Shown piece after piece: positions 23,291 to 32,108 of a stretch of DNA of 64,000 bases (position 1 is its first letter; every line of letters starts with the position of its first letter). The notes beneath the pieces are model-generated. The model ran no database searches, was not told where the DNA came from, and saw only the letters and a list, made by a program, of their open reading frames with translations. This DNA is from an uncultured Acidimicrobiaceae bacterium (lineage in GTDB: Bacteria; Actinomycetota; Acidimicrobiia; Acidimicrobiales; Bog-793): assembly GCA_963823945.1 (NCBI GenBank), contig CAWGNK010000008.1, positions 30,469 through 94,468 of the forward strand, in the 5' to 3' direction. Both the position numbers and the translations under genes were made by a program.

Positions 23291-23887
23291 GTGGCCAGGA
23301 CCGTAGTGATCGCCGAGGACGAGGCTGTCGTGCGGCTCGACCTGTGCGAGATCCTCGCGGAGGAGGGCTTCGAGGTCGTCGGTTCGACCGGGCGCGGCGA
23401 CGAGGCGGTCGAGCTCGTCCGCAAGCTCCACCCCGACCTCGTCATCCTGGACATCAAGATGCCGGGGATGGACGGGCTGCAGGCCGCCGCCGAGATCCAT
23501 TCCTCGGTGCGCACCGCCGTCGTCATCCTCACGGCCTTCAGTGAGCGCAACTTCATCGAGCGTGCCCGCGACGCCGGCGCCCAGGCCTACCTCGTGAAGC
23601 CGTTCCAGCGCGAGGAGCTCCTGCCGGCGATCGAGGTCGCCCTCGGCCGCTTCGCCGAGGCCCAGGCGCTCGAGGCGGAGTTCGCCACCCTCGGCGACGA
23701 CGAGATCGGCCAGGCCCAGCGCCGCGAGACCCGTCTCGCCGTCGACCGCGCCAAGGGCCTCCTGATGGACGATCACGCCATGACCGAGCCCGAGGCGTTC
23801 GCTTTCATCGAGAAGGCCGCCCAGGAGCGCGGCCAGACGATCCGCGGCACCGCCCAGGCGGTCGCCGAAGGCTCGCTCGCGCCTTGA
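23291..23887 (+). CDS. Response regulator with ANTAR RNA-binding output domain (PdtaR-like)
   Basis: GTG at 23291 (VARTVVIAEDE). Receiver domain (DLVILDIKMPGMDG, phospho-acceptor Asp). ANTAR block (RLAVDRAKGLLMDDHAMTEPEAFAFIEKAAQERGQTI). Confidence 0.88.
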   Translation: MARTVVIAEDEAVVRLDLCEILAEEGFEVVGSTGRGDEAVELVRKLHPDLVILDIKMPGMDGLQAAAEIHSSVRTAVVILTAFSERNFIERARDAGAQAYLVKPFQREELLPAIEVALGRFAEAQALEAEFATLGDDEIGQAQRRETRLAVDRAKGLLMDDHAMTEPEAFAFIEKAAQERGQTIRGTAQAVAEGSLAP

Positions 23888-25233
23888 GCCAGCCGGGATC
23901 TGTCGATCTCGCGTTCCGAGGGTCGGCGCCGGCGCTGATCCTGGCGGCGCACGGCCCGGGGCGCCACGGCGGGTTCTTCCTGCTCGGCCTCCTCGTCCTC
24001 GCCGCCCTCGTCTTCCTCGTCGTCCGGCTGAGCGCGCGCACCGGTTCCCGGAAGCGGTCGGGCGATGCCGGCGGCTCCTGGGGACACCCTGACACGCGGC
24101 CGGCGTCACCGGGTGGCCCCCCCGGCGGCGAAGAAGCTGGAGTCGGGCTCGCCGGGATTCCCGTGCCTCCCGCCTCGAGCGGGACTGAACCGGCCGGGGC
24201 GACGGAACCCGCCGGCGTGACCCAGACCCCCGCGCCCGGGATGGGTGCGGACGCGGTCGTTCCCACCGCCCAGCCCGAGGTGTGGACGAGGGTTCCCGAT
24301 GACGGCTGGGCGGTCGAGACCCACGGGCTCACGAAGCGCTTCGGCGCAAACGTCGCGGTGAACGAGGTGGAGCTGCGGGTGCCGCGAGGATGCGCCTTCG
24401 GCTACCTGGGGCCGAACGGGGCCGGCAAGACGACACTGATCCGGACCCTTCTCGGACTGACCCGGGCGGACGGCGGCACGATGTCGCTGCTCGGGATCCC
24501 GGTGCCCCAGGAGCGCGCTCGGGCGCTCGCACGCGTCGGTGCGATCGTCGACGAGCCGCGGTTCCACGACCACCTGACGGGACGGGAGAACCTGCGGCTG
24601 CTGGCGGCGGCCCGCGGCGCCGGTGCCGAGGGGCGGATCGACCCGGGCTTCGAGCGGGTGGGGCTCACCGAGCGGGCCGACGACAAGGTGGCCTCGTACT
24701 CCATGGGCATGCGTCAGCGCCTGGGGGTGGCGGCGTGCCTGCTCGGTGACCCGGAGCTGCTCATCCTGGACGAGCCGATGAACGGGCTCGACCCCGCCGG
24801 GATGCAGGGCATGCGGACGATGATCAAGAGCCTCGTCAGCGAGGGACGGACGGTGGTGCTGTCGTCGCACCTCCTCGACGAGGTCGAGCGCACCTGTGAC
24901 GCCGTGGCGATCGTCGACCGCGGCCGCGTGATCCGCCAGGGCCCGATCGCCGAGCTGCTGCACAGCACGACCAACCCAGTCCTGCAGATCGACTGCAGCG
25001 ACGCCGAGTCGGCGGCCCGCGTGATCGCCGCCGCGAATCTCGCCACCGGCACCACGATTGGCCAAACTGGGCTCACCGTCACGCTGCGGGAGGGCGGGAA
25101 CCGCGAGACCGTCGCGGAGATCAACCGGCTGCTCGTCGAGGCGGGGGTCCTCGTCTATCGCCTGCAGGAGGTGCGCACGTCGCTTGAGGACTGGTTCTTG
25201 TCGGTGACGAGCCGGTTCGGGGAGCAGGCATGA
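23884..25233 (+). CDS. ABC transporter ATP-binding protein with N-terminal TM helix plus Pro/Gly-rich linker
   Basis: Walker A GPNGAGKTT, signature YSMGMRQRL, Walker B LLILDEP. No stop occurs between 23884 and the ATPase core, and codon third positions in 23884-24240 are G/C-rich in this frame. The alternative internal start is ATG 24241. Confidence 0.8.
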   Translation: MSQPGSVDLAFRGSAPALILAAHGPGRHGGFFLLGLLVLAALVFLVVRLSARTGSRKRSGDAGGSWGHPDTRPASPGGPPGGEEAGVGLAGIPVPPASSGTEPAGATEPAGVTQTPAPGMGADAVVPTAQPEVWTRVPDDGWAVETHGLTKRFGANVAVNEVELRVPRGCAFGYLGPNGAGKTTLIRTLLGLTRADGGTMSLLGIPVPQERARALARVGAIVDEPRFHDHLTGRENLRLLAAARGAGAEGRIDPGFERVGLTERADDKVASYSMGMRQRLGVAACLLGDPELLILDEPMNGLDPAGMQGMRTMIKSLVSEGRTVVLSSHLLDEVERTCDAVAIVDRGRVIRQGPIAELLHSTTNPVLQIDCSDAESAARVIAAANLATGTTIGQTGLTVTLREGGNRETVAEINRLLVEAGVLVYRLQEVRTSLEDWFLSVTSRFGEQA

Positions 25234-26369
25234 CCGGCCCCGGCGCCGTCCCGACCGTCCCGAACCCGGCCCCGGCACCGGCGGGTCGGCTCGCCCGTAC
25301 TCGTCGCGGATCCGGCGGTGGTTCGGTTGTGGGGCCGGGTTCGTGGATCCCGTCCTGGGACCTCATCACGACCAAGCAGCTCGAGCTGCGCAAACGCCGC
25401 GGCCTCATGGTCGCCGTATTCCTGCTCACGCTGGGCCTTCCCGTCCTCGTCCTCGGCCTGCGGCTGGCCTTCCACGTCTTCGACCCGAGGAGCTACGGTC
25501 CGGCGGGGAGCCCGAGCGTCTTCTCCGCCCTGTGCAATCCGATGGCGGATTTCGGTTTCATCATCGCCGCGACGCTCGGCGCTTCGGCGGGCACGACCGA
25601 CCTGGCGGCCGGCGTCTTCCGCCACCTCGTGATCACCGGCCGGTCGCGGATCTCGCTCTACCTCGCGCGGATCCCTGCCGGCCTTTCGATCGTGCTGCCG
25701 CTCGTCGCCGTGGCGTTCGCGATGGTGTGCCTGGTGACCGCCTACGAGGGCACCCCCCAGGCCACCTCGGTCAGCTACAACGGCCTCACCGTCCCGCTTG
25801 GGCTCAAGCAGCACGGGCTGGAGCTTCAGCTCCTGAAGCACCCCAAGGAGGTCGACATGGCCCTCGGCTCAGGGCCAGCCTCCGCCCAGGCCGGCATGAA
25901 GTTCATCGACCGGAATATGCCCACGATCTACCGCGACTACGTGGCCGACGTGCCCACGGTGCTCAACCCGGCGATGAACGAGATGGTCAAGATCGGACTG
26001 TGGATCGAGCTCGAGGTGACAATCGGGTTCATGGTCGGCCTCGGTCTCGGGTCGCTGACCGGCCAGCGGACGGTCGCCACGATCCTGATGATCGTGCTCG
26101 AGATCATCGTCACGCCGATCCTCGCGAGGGTCGCGATCCCTTATTTCCTCAACGGCCAACGGCTCATCGTCGGCGTGGCGATGGACCAACTCCGACCTGC
26201 CGGACTGGCAGGCAGCCTGGGAAGCGGTGGCGGCAGGGTGCTCTTCGGGGGACGGGGAGTCCTTATGATCCCGCCGATGCCGACGTGGGCGATGGTCTCC
26301 GTGATCGTCGGCTGGATCGTCGGTTGGTCGATCCTCGGCGCCTGGCGGATGGCCACGCGCGACGCCTGA
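25230..26369 (+). CDS. ABC-2 type transporter permease
   Basis: ATGA overlap with the ATPase gene. Multiple TM helices (LMVAVFLLTLGLPVLVLGL, IVLPLVAVAFAMVCLV, MVSVIVGWIVGWSILGAW). Confidence 0.75.
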   Translation: MTGPGAVPTVPNPAPAPAGRLARTRRGSGGGSVVGPGSWIPSWDLITTKQLELRKRRGLMVAVFLLTLGLPVLVLGLRLAFHVFDPRSYGPAGSPSVFSALCNPMADFGFIIAATLGASAGTTDLAAGVFRHLVITGRSRISLYLARIPAGLSIVLPLVAVAFAMVCLVTAYEGTPQATSVSYNGLTVPLGLKQHGLELQLLKHPKEVDMALGSGPASAQAGMKFIDRNMPTIYRDYVADVPTVLNPAMNEMVKIGLWIELEVTIGFMVGLGLGSLTGQRTVATILMIVLEIIVTPILARVAIPYFLNGQRLIVGVAMDQLRPAGLAGSLGSGGGRVLFGGRGVLMIPPMPTWAMVSVIVGWIVGWSILGAWRMATRDA

Positions 26370-26491
26370 GCCGGTGCCCGTCGCAGCGGGCGGGCGCCCG
26401 AGCAAGGTCCGCCGTCCGTGCCCCGCAGCCTGGCAGCTCGTCGTCTAGCGGGGCGCTCGCCGACCGCACGTCCCGTGCGGATGGGGTCTCC

Positions 26492-27073
26492 TCAGGAGGG
26501 GACGCCGAGAACCTGCCGGAGGTCGTTGCGGGCCCGTTCGATCTGCTTGCGCACGGTCGACTCGGCGATCCCGAGCGACCTGGCGGCCTCCTTCGTGGGC
26601 ATGCCGACGGCAAGACAGAGCACCGCGCAGCGCCGCTGCGCGGCGGGCATCGCCTGGAGGGCGCGCTCGATCCCGACAGCCAGGGTTGCCTCGTCCGCCA
26701 CGTCCGGCGAGGCCGGGTCGTCATCGAGGGCGAGGTCCGGCCGGCGCTGCCGCCGGACGAGCCGGAAGGCGACCCGGTAGGCGTAGCCCGCGGGGTTCGC
26801 GCCGCGTCGTACCCGTCGCCAGTGCCCGAAGGTCCTCGCGAACGCCTCCTGGGCGACATCCTCGGCGTTCTCCCGGCTCGTTCCGCCCAGCTCGAGCGCG
26901 CGAACGAGGCGCGGATAGTGCGCCTCGTAGACGGCGATGAAGCTGTCGTCGACGCCCCCGGCAACGGGCTTGTCGGCCCGCTGCTCGGGGGCGTTGTCCG
27001 GCACGCCGGAGAGCTGGCTCTCGGCGGGAGGGGCGGTGTCCACGGCTAACAGATGAGCACGATTCGCGCTCAT
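26492..27073 (-). CDS. ECF-type RNA polymerase sigma factor
   Basis: 193 aa. Region 2-like AEDVAQEAFARTFGHWRRV...YAYRVAFRLV and region 4 HTH LCLAVGMPTKEAARSLGIAESTVRKQIERAR. Confidence 0.88.
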   Translation of the reverse strand: MSANRAHLLAVDTAPPAESQLSGVPDNAPEQRADKPVAGGVDDSFIAVYEAHYPRLVRALELGGTSRENAEDVAQEAFARTFGHWRRVRRGANPAGYAYRVAFRLVRRQRRPDLALDDDPASPDVADEATLAVGIERALQAMPAAQRRCAVLCLAVGMPTKEAARSLGIAESTVRKQIERARNDLRQVLGVPS

Positions 27074-27092
27074 CTGCTAGCCGCGGAGGGGT

Positions 27093-28394
27093 TCACTTCG
27101 ATGTCGGCGTCCTGGCGACGCCCACCGCGCTGGAGTTGGTGACGGCAAGCGGGAGAAAGCACCGGGCGGGCTCGGCGATCGCGTCCTCGCTGGACACGGT
27201 CGCGGTGCCGACGGCGTTGCCCGAGCTGTCGAGAGCGGTGAGGCTCGCCGGGAGGGGTGCATTGCCGTCGTTGGCGAGGACCGCCCAGCCGTCCTGCACG
27301 TTCATCTGGTCCGTCGCTCCGTCGGCGAAGCTCGCGTGGACGCTGCCCACGTCGGCGGAGACCCGGACCATCACCACCTCGACGGGCGAGGACCCGCCGG
27401 CCCCGGCGACGGAGCTGTCGATGAGCTCAAAGCGCTCTGCTGCGGTCGCCGAGGCGACCTCCGGGAGCGACACGGAGAAGGTGCCGCTCGTCACGGGGTT
27501 CGACACGTCGACAACGAGCATCTCGGTCGTCTCGCAGGGCGAGATGGGGGGGAGGCTTGTCACGCCGTTGGGCCCAGTCGTTCCACTGGATCCCGTCACG
27601 CCGGTCGCGCCCGTGGTGCCGCTCGGTCCGGTCACGCCACTAGGTCCGGTCGTTCCACTGGGTCCGGTCGACCCACTAGGTCCGGTCGTCCCACTGGGTC
27701 CGGTCGACCCACTGGCGCCCGTCGACCCACTGGGTCCGGTCACGCCACTGGGGCCGGTCACGCCACTGGCGCCCGTCGACCCACTGGAACCCGTCACACC
27801 GCTCGCGCCGGATGCACCGCTCACACCCGTTGCCGAGCTCGTGATCGGTGTACCCACGGTCGGATTCGGGACGGCAGACGTCTTGGACACGACAGGCGGC
27901 GACACGAACATCACCGGCGCCACCTGTTCCGTGAACGCCCGGATCGTGATGTCGCCCACGGTCCGCACGAACAGCGGCTTCAGCGTGTCGCTGCGGATGT
28001 CCGGCATGCTGGAGCAGTGGTGCACGGGGCACAGGTCAGCCATGGGCCCCGGCACGGAGGCCTTGGAGCCGTTCGATCCGGTCGACCAGTGCAGACCCTT
28101 CGGCGCGGTGCCGAGGGCCTGGGGCGCGTTGGTCCAGGCGCCGCCTCCGACGAGGCTGGAGATCTGGTTCATCGCCGCCAGGCTGGAGGTCGACGACCCC
28201 CCGGTCGTGGTGCGCGAGATGCCGGCGACCCCCGCCGTAGCGAGGGCGACGACCATCGCGGTCGCAGTGAAGATCTTCAGCTGCCGCTCCCGGCGGCGGT
28301 GTGACCGGGCGACGATCGAGCGGAGCGTCGCGTCCGACGCGGGGGCGCCGGAGTGGTCGAGAAGATGGGAGAGGTCTCCGTCTTCGGGTGTCAT
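27093..28394 (-). CDS. Single-pass membrane protein with collagen-like Gly-X-Y repeat ectodomain
   Basis: 433 aa. TM helix [19 protein letters not shown] (about aa 41-59). 30 uninterrupted G-X-(S/T) triplets at aa 190-279. The stop lies 19 nt upstream of the ECF sigma start. Confidence 0.75.
27558..27827 (-). repeat. 9-bp-periodic coding repeat (30 Gly-X-Y triplets)
   Basis: Counted from the translation [90 protein letters not shown]. The DNA shows reiterated GGTCCGGTC/GGTCCACTG-type units. Confidence 0.9.
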
Positions 28395-28621
28395 GTTGTC
28401 AACTCCTGGGTTTGTGGGCGACGTGCGCCCGGTTCGAGGGTTTCTCGTTCGTCCGGAAACGTTCCATTCACTTCCTACAAAGCCGCAGGCAAGCCCATTC
28501 GCGTACAGGGACCTGCGGATTTGTCGGTGTCCGCGATCCCGCGCGTGTCCCGGGTCGGTCGTTTCCCGGTGTGACCTGCGCCTACGTGGCCGGGGTCAAC
28601 GTATGCGCGGCGCGACCGGTC

Positions 28622-29296
28622 TCAGGCGGTGGTGACGAAGAGCCGGCAGCCGAGCGCCGGACCGATCGCCACGGTTCGCCCCACCGCCCCCTCCTCGTCG
28701 AGTTCCAGGGTGAGGGTGCCGTCGGGAGCCCGGTTGCGGATCCGCACGCGACGTCCGGGAACGAGGCCGTGGTCGCTCAGGTAGACGAGGGCGTCGCGGT
28801 CGACTTCGACGAGCTCGGTGATCCGGGACAGCGTGACCGGCGTCCCCTCGGCGATCTCGGTGAGCGGTCGCTGCGGCCGGGGATCGCCGACCGTCCCGGG
28901 GATCGGGTTGCCGTGTGGGCAGGTCGTCGGATTGTGCAGGATCGCGACGAAGCGGGCCTCGACCTCGTCGGAGATGACGTGCTCCCAGCGGCCGGCCTCG
29001 TGGTGCGCCTCGTGCCAGGGGAGCCCCACGACGTCGACGAGGAACCGCTCGGCGAGGCGGTGCTTGCGCACGACGCTCTCGGCCCGGGCCCGGCCTTTCT
29101 CCGTCAGCTCGAGGCCCCGCCCCGAACGCGCCACGTAGTGCTCGTCGGAGAGGCGCCGGATCATTTCGGAGACTGCCTGGGGCGTGTGGCCGAGCCACTC
29201 GACGAGCCGCGCCTGGATGACCGGGACGTGCTCCTCCTCCAGCGCATACATCGTCTCGAGGTACTCCTCGAGCGGAGGGTGGAAGCCTGCAGGCAC
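28622..29296 (-). CDS. DtxR/MntR-family metal-dependent transcriptional regulator with C-terminal FeoA/SH3-like domain
   Basis: 224 aa. Contains EEYLETMYALEEE, QARLVEWLGHTPQAVSEMIRRL (HTH), RKHRLAERFLVDVVGL and CPHGNPIP. Confidence 0.88.
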   Translation of the reverse strand: MPAGFHPPLEEYLETMYALEEEHVPVIQARLVEWLGHTPQAVSEMIRRLSDEHYVARSGRGLELTEKGRARAESVVRKHRLAERFLVDVVGLPWHEAHHEAGRWEHVISDEVEARFVAILHNPTTCPHGNPIPGTVGDPRPQRPLTEIAEGTPVTLSRITELVEVDRDALVYLSDHGLVPGRRVRIRNRAPDGTLTLELDEEGAVGRTVAIGPALGCRLFVTTA

Positions 29297-29381
29297 TCTG
29301 GCCGATCGTACCGGCCGCTGGCCTGGGCCGTTGCCTGCGATCCCCGCGGCGATCCCCCGATGCGACGCCTACCATCGAACC

Positions 29382-32108
29382 GTGGCGACCTACCTACTGC
29401 TCGACGGGCACAGCCTCGCCTATCGCGCCTGGTTCGCCCTCCAGGACGCCGGCATGCGGACCTCGTCCGGACAGGAGACCCAGGCCGTCTACGGCTTTGT
29501 CGCGATGGCGACGAAGATGCTCGCCGACTTCCGTCCCGATGGCCTGGCGGTCGCCTTCGACCGGCACGAGCCGACCTTTCGCGACGCCCTCGTCGCCGAC
29601 TACAAGGCGGGCCGCCCGCCGACCCCGGAACCCCTCATCCAGCAGGTGGAGCTGATCCGGCAGTTCGTCACCGCGCTGGGTGTCCCGGCGGTCGACGCCG
29701 TCGGCTACGAGGCGGACGACATCCTCGCCACGCTGGCGACCCAGCTGCGAGACGCCGGGTGCGACGTCGTCATCGTGACGGGGGACCGCGACTCCTTCCA
29801 GCTCGTCGAGGACCCGCACGTGCGGGTCCTCTACAACCGCCGCGGCATGTCCGACTACGTCCTTTACGACGAGGCGGGCATCCTGGCGCGCACGGGGGTC
29901 CTGCCCGCCGACTACCCGTTGCTGGCCTCGTTGCGCGGCGACCCGTCGGACAACCTGCCGGGCGTCCCCGGGGTCGGCGAGAAGACGGCGGCGAAGCTCG
30001 TCACGACCTATCACGACCTCGACGGCCTCTACGCCCACCTCGACGAGTGCACGCCGAAGCTGCGCGAGTCGCTCGCCGCCAACGAGGCCCAGGTGCGGTC
30101 GAACCTGCAGATGACACCGCTCGTGCGCGATGTGCCCCTCGGAATCACGCCCGCCGACCTGGCGTTCTCGGCACCGGACCGGGAGCGCCTCGAGCGGCTC
30201 TTCAACTTCCTCGAGATGCGCACCCCGCGCGACCGGCTCTTCTCGGTGCTCGACGCGGCGGGGTTCGACGCCGCGCCGGCGGCCCCCGAACCCGAGTCCG
30301 AACCGGTCCAGGACCGCGGCGTGGTCGCGCCGGACACCGTTGCCGCCGCCGCCGCGGCACTCGGTGCCGTCGACGAGGCGGCCCGGCGCGGGGGTTGGAT
30401 CGGGCTGGAAGCGACCTGGGCGGCGGCGCCTGGTCGTTCGGCGATCGACGCGCTGGCGTTCGCACCGCCCGGACCGGACGACGTCGTCGTCGTGCCGGGT
30501 GGCCTCCTCGCCGCGCCCGAGCTCGCCGCGTCGCTCGGGTGCGTCCTCGGTTCGCCGCCGGGGGAACCCTCGCGGCGCCGGCTCGTCGGGCACCGGGTCA
30601 AGGAGCTGATGCGGGTGCTGCTGCCCCAGGGCATCGACACGACGGCGCTCGAACTCGACACCGCGGTCGCCGCCTACGTCATCGACCCGGCCGACGGCCA
30701 GGCGACCCTCGACGAGCTGGCCCAGCGCCGGGGGATGACCGGGGCTCCGGCACCGGAGGCGGGGCAGCTCGGCTTCGAACTCGGCGCGGCTGAGGCGACG
30801 GCGACCGGGCTCGCCGAGGCGACGGCCCGGCGGGCGGAGCTCGTCGCGCGGCTGGGGTCGCGCGTGCTCACCGAGCTCGACGGGATCGGCGGCAGGGAGC
30901 TCTACGAGGAGATCGAGCTGCCGCTCATCCGGGTGCTCGCCCGGATGGAGGTCGCCGGCATCGCCGTCGACGTCGCGAGGTTGCGGGGGATCAACGTCGA
31001 GCTCACGACGGAGGCGGCGGGCCTGGAGGCCGAACTTCATTCGCTCGCCGGCGAGGAATTCAACGTCAACTCGTCGACGCAGCTGCGCACGATCCTTTAC
31101 GAGAAGCTGCGGCTCACCCCGCAGCGCAAGACGAAGACCGGCTACTCGACCGACGCCGCGACGCTGGAGAAGTTGCGAGACGCGCACCCGATCGTCGCGA
31201 CGCTGCTGCGCTACCGCGAGGTCGAGAAGCTCCGCTCCACCTACGGCGAGGGCCTGCTCGCCGAGGTCGCCCCGGACGGGCGGATCCACGCCTCGTTCAA
31301 CCAGACCGTGGCGCGGACGGGGCGGCTGTCTTCGGACCGGCCGAACCTCCACAACATCCCGGTCCGGACGGAGGACGGCCGCAGGATCCGCGAGGCCTTC
31401 GTGCCGGCCCGGGGCACCGAGTTCCTGATCGCGGACTACAACCAGATCGAGCTGCGGGTGATCGCCCACCTGTCGGGCGACCCGGGGCTCGTCGAGGAGT
31501 TCGCCGCCGGTCACGACATCCACGCCGCGACGGCGTCGCGCCTGTACGGCGTCGATCCCGGGGCGGTGACGACCGCCCAGCGATCGAAGGCGAAGATGGT
31601 CTCCTACGGCCTCGCCTACGGCATGGAGGCCTACGGCCTCGCGCAGCGGCTCGGCGTCGGGCTCGACGAGGCCTCCGAGATCCTCGGCCAGTACTTCGCC
31701 GCCTTCCCGGCGGTGAAGGCCTACATGGAAGGCTCCGTCGCCGAGGCCCGTCGCCGCGGCTACACCGCGACCGAGCTCGGGCGACGCCGCTACATTCCCG
31801 AGCTCTTGTCGGACAACCACCGGATCCGCCAGGCGGCGGAGCGTCAGGCGATGAACGCCGGCATCCAGGGGCTCGCCGCCGACATCTTCAAGCTCGCCCT
31901 CGTCCGCCTCGACGCCGCGCTGGAAACCGGCGCCCACGCCTCGCGGATCGTCTTGCAGGTCCACGACGAGGTGCTCGTCGAGGTGCCCGAGCCCGAGCAC
32001 GACACCGTCGAGGCGATCGTGAAGGAGTCGATGGAGAAGGCCTATCCGCTGCGGGTTCCACTCGAAGTACACCTGTCGTGGGGGAGTACCTGGGCCGCAG
32101 CGAAATGA
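29382..32108 (+). CDS. polA: DNA polymerase I
   Basis: GTG at 29382 (VATYLLLDGHSLAYRAWF, 5' nuclease domain) within ORF 29184..32108. Polymerase motifs DYNQIELRVIAHLSGD, KAKMVSYGLAYG and LQVHDEVLVE. Confidence 0.95.
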   Translation: MATYLLLDGHSLAYRAWFALQDAGMRTSSGQETQAVYGFVAMATKMLADFRPDGLAVAFDRHEPTFRDALVADYKAGRPPTPEPLIQQVELIRQFVTALGVPAVDAVGYEADDILATLATQLRDAGCDVVIVTGDRDSFQLVEDPHVRVLYNRRGMSDYVLYDEAGILARTGVLPADYPLLASLRGDPSDNLPGVPGVGEKTAAKLVTTYHDLDGLYAHLDECTPKLRESLAANEAQVRSNLQMTPLVRDVPLGITPADLAFSAPDRERLERLFNFLEMRTPRDRLFSVLDAAGFDAAPAAPEPESEPVQDRGVVAPDTVAAAAAALGAVDEAARRGGWIGLEATWAAAPGRSAIDALAFAPPGPDDVVVVPGGLLAAPELAASLGCVLGSPPGEPSRRRLVGHRVKELMRVLLPQGIDTTALELDTAVAAYVIDPADGQATLDELAQRRGMTGAPAPEAGQLGFELGAAEATATGLAEATARRAELVARLGSRVLTELDGIGGRELYEEIELPLIRVLARMEVAGIAVDVARLRGINVELTTEAAGLEAELHSLAGEEFNVNSSTQLRTILYEKLRLTPQRKTKTGYSTDAATLEKLRDAHPIVATLLRYREVEKLRSTYGEGLLAEVAPDGRIHASFNQTVARTGRLSSDRPNLHNIPVRTEDGRRIREAFVPARGTEFLIADYNQIELRVIAHLSGDPGLVEEFAAGHDIHAATASRLYGVDPGAVTTAQRSKAKMVSYGLAYGMEAYGLAQRLGVGLDEASEILGQYFAAFPAVKAYMEGSVAEARRRGYTATELGRRRYIPELLSDNHRIRQAAERQAMNAGIQGLAADIFKLALVRLDAALETGAHASRIVLQVHDEVLVEVPEPEHDTVEAIVKESMEKAYPLRVPLEVHLSWGSTWAAAK

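Follow-up and report, generated by a model that had tools for sequence, protein, structure and literature searches.

A sigma factor-linked membrane protein family of Acidimicrobiia with a length-variable collagen-like spacer: a putative class-II-like anti-sigma factor or sensor

CnrY of Cupriavidus metallidurans is a single-pass anti-sigma factor with a cytoplasmic domain of 45 amino acids (aa); its gene precedes cnrH in cnrYXH, an operon under autoregulation (PMC6851896). The class I anti-sigma factors (RseA, RsdA, RskA and RslA; zf-HC2 and RskA families) are membrane-anchored partners of actinobacterial extracytoplasmic function (ECF) sigma factors, transcribed together with them and having an extracytoplasmic domain for signal input. 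Collagen-like proteins such as BclA of Bacillus and Scl1/Scl2 of Streptococcus carry an uninterrupted Gly-X-Y (GXY) repeat whose number varies from strain to strain, with Pro common at X and Thr or Ser at Y, flanked by non-collagen domains. Here we analyse a gene whose product resembles each of these in part. It lies in a stretch of 64,000 nucleotides (nt; hereafter the window) from an uncultured Acidimicrobiaceae bacterium (assembly GCA_963823945.1, contig CAWGNK010000008.1), encodes a 433-aa membrane protein with a collagen-like array, and is followed by an ECF sigma factor gene on the same strand (Table 1).

With moderate confidence, we propose that the protein is a class-II-like anti-sigma factor or sensor and the dedicated, co-transcribed partner of the downstream sigma factor, which it would bind and inhibit. 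We favour this reading because the two genes form an invariant pair, no part of the protein is better conserved than its cytoplasmic N-terminus, and an ECF-type promoter is conserved upstream. The initial annotation had offered two options, an anti-sigma factor or sensor and a surface fibre; the comparative evidence favours the former, and the surface fibre is the least supported.

The stop codon of the membrane-protein gene occupies 27093-27095 and the ATG of the sigma gene lies at 27073, which leaves the 19-nt gap of the initial annotation. The ECF sigma gene named there holds as well: its product scores above the cutoff of TIGR02937 (sigma70-ECF); the best subfamily model, SigE-fam_strep, reaches 96.6 bits, under its cutoff, and of the solved structures those of M. 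tuberculosis SigE, SigH and SigL come closest. A GC-rich, terminator-like hairpin of 11 pairs (26621-26645, minus strand) lies inside the part of the sigma open reading frame (ORF) that codes for region 4; one such match against 0.7 expected is consistent with chance. An orthologue of the sigma factor (48-94% identity) is encoded directly downstream, on the same strand, in 21 of the 21 loci first collected. At least three unrelated kinds of neighbourhood share this linkage: polA/DtxR, the one found in the window; MarR/ABC/SIMPL; and that of a 1181-aa TIG-domain protein. In two loci (L001 and L003) the call for the membrane-protein gene and that for the sigma gene have 4 nt in common. In two distant representatives of the family (P0088 and P0130) gene calls run on into sigma regions 4 and 2; these are probably frameshifted or fused calls across the boundary between the two genes.

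The sigma gene is the last on its strand in the window and is convergent with an ABC permease gene, and so has no other candidate partner there. Co-orientation with an ECF sigma gene, adjacency to it and conservation of the pair across genomes, by which an anti-sigma gene is operationally recognized, are all found here, in the 21 loci above and in 15 further ones located through the promoter motif described below. A conserved neighbourhood and transmembrane (TM) helices are the standard criteria for a putative anti-sigma factor, and most proteins so identified lie outside the Pfam anti-sigma models; next to ECF sigma genes, conserved proteins with a single TM helix and without a known family are common and are routinely called putative anti-sigma factors (PMC7826278). 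The comparative evidence supports a functional tie between the membrane protein and the ECF sigma factor.

We sought relatives of the membrane protein with the repeat excised. A word-indexed database gave 11; two further word-indexed searches with broad profiles gave 13 and 6 matches, low-complexity words having saturated the candidates. A full hidden Markov model scan with the family profile found 280 cluster representatives at E <= 1e-3, 99 of them at E <= 1e-10. A scan of one genome per species returned 14 loci, all in metagenome-assembled genomes (MAGs) of Acidimicrobiaceae/Acidimicrobiales from peat, bog and soil. Outside the repeat, neither the window protein nor any of 10 diverse relatives has a match to a Pfam family. 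Judged by these searches, the protein family is undescribed, without a Pfam match, and known only from Acidimicrobiia MAGs.

Mean identity to 18 diverged relatives is highest in the cytoplasmic segment (74% over aa 1-39), followed by the TM helix (59%), the C-terminal domain (55%) and the CxxxxC motif with its hairpin (44%). It is 34% in the juxtamembrane segment, 21% in the GXY array and 15% in the region before the linker. Residues 1-75 are 100% identical between the window protein and that of locus L004, the whole proteins being 82% identical, and alignments show that the cytoplasmic motif persists throughout the wider family.

Upstream of the gene we found a promoter-like motif, GTACGCGAA-N13-GGCTTTGTA; no second site in the window fits it with 3 mismatches or fewer (0.01 expected by chance). 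At 16 of 21 related loci there is, upstream and in the same orientation, a single copy of a relaxed form that keeps the consensus 13-nt spacing, GTACGCGA-N16-CTTTRTA. The motif lies, for example, at 4889-4919 in L004, 3923-3953 in L009, 3924-3954 in L013 and 3885-3915 in L017, always with the 13-nt spacing, and it is retained upstream of the operon where the proteins share merely 30-50% identity. It looks like an ECF-type -35/-10 pair. SigE/SigH-type ECF promoters read GGAAC/T-N17-18-GTT, which the layout of the motif, CGAA[C/T/A]-N18-GTA, resembles. A scan for sigma-70 promoters returned 0 sites.

The exact motif was found at 21 loci in a metagenome scan. At 15 of these a homologue of the membrane protein and/or the sigma factor is encoded directly downstream, some of the membrane proteins being only ~30% identical to that of the window. 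Among the rest, the motif precedes a stand-alone SIMPL gene in L025 and a leader like that of L003 in L032; the remaining 4 of the 21 are low-GC chance matches from two distinct sequences. In four loci (L001, L008, L010 and L027) the motif is followed by a gene for a SIMPL-domain protein (PF04402), then by the membrane-protein and sigma genes. The motif before a SIMPL gene alone in L025 suggests that SIMPL is a member of the regulon; no SIMPL gene was found within the window. The promoter evidence is what one would expect of an autoregulated ECF operon with SIMPL as an extra target. Together, promoter, membrane protein and ECF sigma factor define a module that is restricted to Acidimicrobiia and had not been annotated before, with a SIMPL-domain protein as candidate target.

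In the mechanism that we propose, the cytoplasmic N-terminus of ~40 residues would hold the sigma factor at the membrane. The extracytoplasmic part, which comprises the CxxxxC loop, a beta-hairpin, a low-complexity spacer and a disulfide-bracketed beta-sandwich of immunoglobulin (Ig)-like appearance, would receive an envelope signal, upon which the sigma factor would be released. Freed sigma would then transcribe its own operon from the motif described above, and in other genomes the same promoter would also drive the SIMPL-domain gene.

The closest parallel is the CnrY-CnrH pair. Both membrane proteins pass the membrane once and have a short cytoplasmic N-terminus, and in both cases the membrane-protein gene stands upstream of an ECF sigma gene, in one operon with a promoter that is, here putatively, sigma-dependent. 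The initial annotation had described this gene order as the reverse of the usual one; it is indeed unusual but not unique, since cnrYXH is a precedent. Unlike CnrY, to which it has no detectable sequence similarity and with which it would share sigma binding, the window protein has an extracytoplasmic region of its own, of ~370 aa; CnrY is ~95 aa long and works with a separate sensor, CnrX. The lineages differ as well (Acidimicrobiia here, Betaproteobacteria for CnrY).

The class I anti-sigma domain (zf-HC2, RskA, RsdA_SigD_bd and similar) has four helices and can be recognised by Pfam or a profile; a threshold of 50 aa is applied to it (PMC7406223). A cytoplasmic segment of only ~40 aa, together with the lack of any Pfam match to a class I domain in the window protein, 10 diverse relatives and 23 N-terminal segments, excludes such a domain here. 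The protein thus resembles class I factors in being a membrane-anchored ECF partner with a proposed extracytoplasmic signal-input domain, and differs from them in having neither a class I domain nor a zinc motif, in its cytoplasmic part of <50 aa and in the position of its gene, at -1 and not +1 relative to the sigma gene. A class II domain (CnrY/NepR type) is a short cytoplasmic segment at the N-terminus, of ~45 aa at most and with helical propensity, which wraps domains 2 and 4 of the sigma factor. Here the length fits, the segment contains two conserved hydrophobic motifs (LSHLLD and LRSIVAR), and AlphaFold2 predicts a helix from aa 21 with low confidence. A profile of the N-terminus matched no PDB entry, 4cxf included; given the lack of similarity to CnrY or to solved anti-sigma factors, class II membership is a resemblance in length and layout only. 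With this locus, an uncultured lineage of peat soils gains a probable new anti-sigma family of class-II-like type.

Family alignments reveal a common architecture: a cytoplasmic motif ([DE]LxxLL[DE]...LxxIVxRxRRRxxRR), the TM helix, a variable juxtamembrane segment, and an ectodomain made up of CxxxxC, a hairpin (LFxRTxGxVTVRAF), a Ser/Thr/Gly/Pro linker of ~20 to >150 aa plus a C-terminal domain of the consensus C...LVVEVSxxGAVG...DGWAVL...C. The ORF and the hydropathy profile agree with the initial annotation of a 433-aa product with a short cytoplasmic N-terminus and one TM helix: the highest Kyte-Doolittle 19-residue windows begin at aa 38-42, and aa 41-60 is the sole strongly hydrophobic stretch. 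A basic cluster (RRRERQLK) immediately N-terminal of the helix points to a type-II (N-in), single-pass topology. In two members (P0026 and P0047) CxxxxC is lost and the Cys pair that brackets the C-terminal domain is kept; the independent retention of the pairs suggests two separate disulfides.

AlphaFold2 modelled the full-length protein poorly (predicted local distance difference test, pLDDT, 41.7), with a helix over aa 21-55. When aa 118-433 were modelled with 23 sequences, the hairpin (aa 138-157) reached a pLDDT of ~96 and the C-terminal domain, with nine beta strands, 87-96; the hairpin may pack against this domain. The GXY region stayed below 50 in the monomer models. Two Foldseek runs against the PDB returned solely generic Ig/fibronectin type III-like sandwiches (E >= 0.02) and no C1q/TNF-like match. 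A search of PDB sequences with a profile of the C-terminal domain gave only a DUF3992 protein (9i0y, 48 chains; E 0.02), which we treated as noise. The extreme C-terminus (aa 429-433, 27096-27110, minus strand), T-P/T-T-S-K, is nearly invariant in the closer subfamily, whose proteins finish in ...TTSSK or ...TSK although the 15 residues before are variable; this tail might serve as a signal for recognition or processing.

The array itself is real. A regular-expression count gives exactly the 30 uninterrupted GXY triplets (aa 190-279) of the initial annotation, with P8 V7 S6 A5 T4 at X and T15 S14 N1 at Y, and the Pfam model Collagen (PF01391) is passed with 49.7 bits against a gathering cutoff of 27.2. 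The codon usage noted there as atypical is borne out as well: the GC content at third codon positions (GC3) falls from 0.91 in the remainder of the gene to 0.69 within the repeat, which uses AGT 10 times and GGA 9 times. Collapse of the repeat in assembly, named beforehand as an outcome that would count against the array, is not an issue, since an independent metagenome contig from the same species (L026; protein 97% identical to that of the window) also has exactly 30 triplets and a relative with 24 triplets (P0001) is present on 19 contigs.

The array sits exactly in the hypervariable Ser/Thr/Gly/Pro linker of the family. As the initial annotation had suggested might be the case, the repeat number at this alignment position varies between homologues, from 0 to 30 triplets. 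There are 30 in the window and L026, 24 in P0001/L004, 22 in P0002, 17 in L018, 14 in L022 and L042, 13 in L014, 11 in L019 and L028, 9+5 with one interruption in L017, 9 in L009, 6 in L013, and 0 in L001, L002, L008, L010, L012, L015, L020, L021 and L027. Farther relatives have, for the most part, GAS and GAT triplets without Pro. Where a relative has no GXY run, its linker is irregular G/S/T/P sequence or repeats with another period, as GSTGANPT does in L020. Distant members also carry GAS-type runs at other sites; in P0039, for instance, one lies in the C-terminal tail. In a neighbour-joining tree of the conserved regions, the GXY-bearing members form one large clade with a GXY-free subclade nested within it, in a topology that is not robust.

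The DNA of the array repeats in tandem with a period of 18/36/54 nt (77-83% matches), and an indel of 54 nt, or 6 triplets, separates the window from L004. The periodicity and the indel argue for tandem duplication as its origin, and the lower GC3 suggests that the expansion is recent. Most likely, then, the array is a lineage-specific elaboration of the family's Ser/Thr/Gly/Pro spacer, produced by tandem duplication. It most likely acts as an extended, possibly O-glycosylated spacer that would set the distance of the sensor domain from the membrane. In position, composition class and hypervariable length it matches the linker of GXY-free relatives, and is thus like the Ser/Thr/Pro-rich linkers of actinobacterial envelope proteins; unlike them, it has gained a strict three-residue Gly periodicity by expansion of 18/54-nt tandem repeats. 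Since many relatives have no GXY run at all, the collagen-like stretch is clearly neither the defining feature nor the functional core of the protein, and the family works without it.

The likeness to BclA and Scl claimed in the initial annotation accordingly stands for the repeat pattern and the Pfam match, and not beyond. The NCBIfam models for Scl/Lcl (NF038330, NF038329 and NF046116) score 45.6-47 bits against cutoffs of 325-500, a match to the repeat only, and Foldseek found no C1q-like or V-type trimerisation domain, a result that leaves room for a novel trimeriser. Unlike BclA and Scl, the protein is anchored by an N-terminal TM helix and not by LPXTG or the exosporium, the family can do without the repeat, and there is a tie to a sigma factor. 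A Pfam hit alone is therefore insufficient for the label 'collagen-like adhesins'. The natural series from 0 to 30 triplets lets one ask when a GXY run becomes a structural element, in a case where a collagen-like repeat emerges and changes length within the spacer of a signalling protein. What is new here is a family of Acidimicrobiia, so far unannotated, whose members have a very short cytoplasmic segment and a gene that precedes the one for their sigma factor, with a conserved promoter, a link to SIMPL and a length-variable collagen-like spacer in the ectodomain.

Several points weigh against an anti-sigma factor with a plain spacer. Profile searches found no similarity of the N-terminus to a known anti-sigma domain in Pfam or the PDB. 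The typical position of an anti-sigma gene is +1, in contrast to -1 here (PMC7826278). An envelope protein that is co-transcribed with a sigma factor need not inhibit it and could instead act as its target or positive partner. As to the spacer, the repeat has 27% Pro at X and 50% Thr at Y, which fits genuine Gram-positive bacterial collagen-like regions (31% and 48%, respectively; PMC8968730). Furthermore, of the 11 residue differences between the window protein and that of L026, 9 fall within the repeat, and all 9 are at X positions, leaving Gly and Ser/Thr unchanged, a pattern compatible with a structured triple helix.

Such a helix would make the protein a trimeric sensor, in which the array forms a true triple helix and a homotrimer carries Ig-like heads on a rigid rod of ~25 nm across the wall. 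The length of the rod (6-30 triplets) would be functionally tuned; an anti-sigma role is compatible with this arrangement, the collagen part being structural. Besides the composition and the X-only substitutions, the Pfam match, the uninterrupted run of 30 triplets and the persistence of GXY runs over a large clade speak for it, and the length polymorphism among close relatives (22, 24 and 30 triplets) resembles that of the BclA collagen-like region. However, many members have no GXY run at the same position, some runs (6 or 9 triplets) are too short for stability, and relatives use GAS/GAT triplets that lack Pro. The structure searches recognised no trimerisation domain; for the C-terminal domain they gave generic Ig-like folds only. 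The GAS-type runs at other positions suggest a mutational propensity of low-complexity regions, and changes confined to X are also expected from recombination between repeat units. We thus consider the trimeric stalk unlikely. Still more doubtful, in our judgement, is its fullest version, a homotrimeric anti-sigma factor with a possibly O-glycosylated triple helix and sensor heads on a stalk of evolvable length (6-30 triplets, ~5-25 nm). If true, it would be a collagen-based molecular ruler or mechanosensor that spans the actinobacterial wall and feeds an ECF sigma factor. To our knowledge no such device has been described, and a full-text literature search found no paper combining anti-sigma factor, collagen-like and ECF.

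Alternatively, the protein may be a sigma-dependent envelope protein, structural or adhesive, or a positive partner, encoded by the first gene of the sigma operon and not sequestering sigma at all. Its gene shares a promoter type with that of a SIMPL envelope protein, the large ectodomain has a predicted Ig-like fold, and no anti-sigma domain is recognisable. A purely extracellular function would, however, not lead one to expect that the cytoplasmic 40 residues are the most conserved. Moreover, the linkage to sigma is strictly 1:1, often with translational coupling, across ~30-97% protein identity, and no other regulator is conserved beside the sigma gene. We regard this alternative as quite unlikely, and prefer the anti-sigma factor or sensor.

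The initial annotation had also reported an open antisense frame. The frame is indeed open in the window and carries PLGPV-type repeats; as a gene it does not stand, being a high-GC shadow ORF with stops in most relatives. GC by codon position is 0.65/0.61/0.82 for the antisense frame and 0.60/0.65/0.86 for the sense frame. Since the two frames share the third codon position, neither GC3 nor composition can separate them, and we therefore used the persistence of stop codons across homologues. All 21 distinct relatives keep the sense ORF unbroken. The antisense frame, open in the window, stays so in just two of them, L026 and the very GC-rich L027; every other relative has 1-7 stops in it, L004 having 2. 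That the antisense ORF is the real gene, or that the repeat is mis-assembled, is hardly credible: its open frame and near-equal GC3 in the window are outweighed by these stops, by the conserved TM helix, four conserved Cys and confidently folded domain of the sense product, and by the recurrence of the triplets in independent contigs.

Table 1. Positions of the features of the locus (window coordinates unless another locus is named)
Feature	Position	Strand	Basis or remark
Gene for 433-aa single-pass membrane protein, putative anti-sigma factor/sensor	27093..28394	-	ORF and homologues; stop included
ECF (group 4) sigma factor gene, 193 aa	26492..27073	-	Pfam Sigma70_r2 and Sigma70_r4_2
Promoter-like motif GTACGCGAA-N13-GGCTTTGTA, candidate autoregulated ECF promoter	28476..28506	-	~80 nt upstream of ATG
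Shine-Dalgarno-like AGGAG	28403..28407	-	Read from sequence; 8 nt 5' of ATG at 28394
Cytoplasmic N-terminal segment, aa 1-40, motif [DE]LSHLLD..., proposed sigma-binding region	28275..28394	-	Most conserved region
Transmembrane helix, aa 41-60	28215..28274	-	Kyte-Doolittle, AlphaFold2
Extracytoplasmic CxxxxC (C122, C127), then conserved beta-hairpin	27924..28043	-	Columns invariant or nearly so; AlphaFold2
Collagen-like array, 30 Gly-X-Ser/Thr triplets, aa 190-279	27558..27827	-	Regular-expression count, Pfam, tandem-repeat analysis
C-terminal domain, conserved and all-beta, aa 283-415, bracketed by the invariant pair C287 and C412; proposed sensor of Ig-like-sandwich appearance	27150..27548	-	AlphaFold2, Foldseek
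Antisense shadow ORF, 499 aa, not a gene	27136..28635	+	Stop persistence in relatives
SIMPL gene between motif and membrane-protein gene	L001 4229-4846		
SIMPL gene between motif and membrane-protein gene	L008 3198-3995		
SIMPL gene between motif and membrane-protein gene	L010 3198-3995		
SIMPL gene between motif and membrane-protein gene	L027 2158-2988		

Rfam gave no match within 26000-29500. Next to the membrane-protein gene, a DtxR/IdeR-family gene (28622-29296, minus strand) and the longest polA ORF (29184-32108, plus strand) overlap by ~110 nt at their 5' ends. This polA ORF encodes 974 aa, against 925 aa called for the L004 orthologue, and the shorter call suggests that the true polA start is probably further downstream. 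On the other side of the sigma gene, the ORF of an ABC-transporter ATPase (23884-25233, plus strand) has an N-terminal extension of ~150 aa before the ATPase domain, containing a hydrophobic segment and Pro/Gly/Ala-rich low-complexity sequence.

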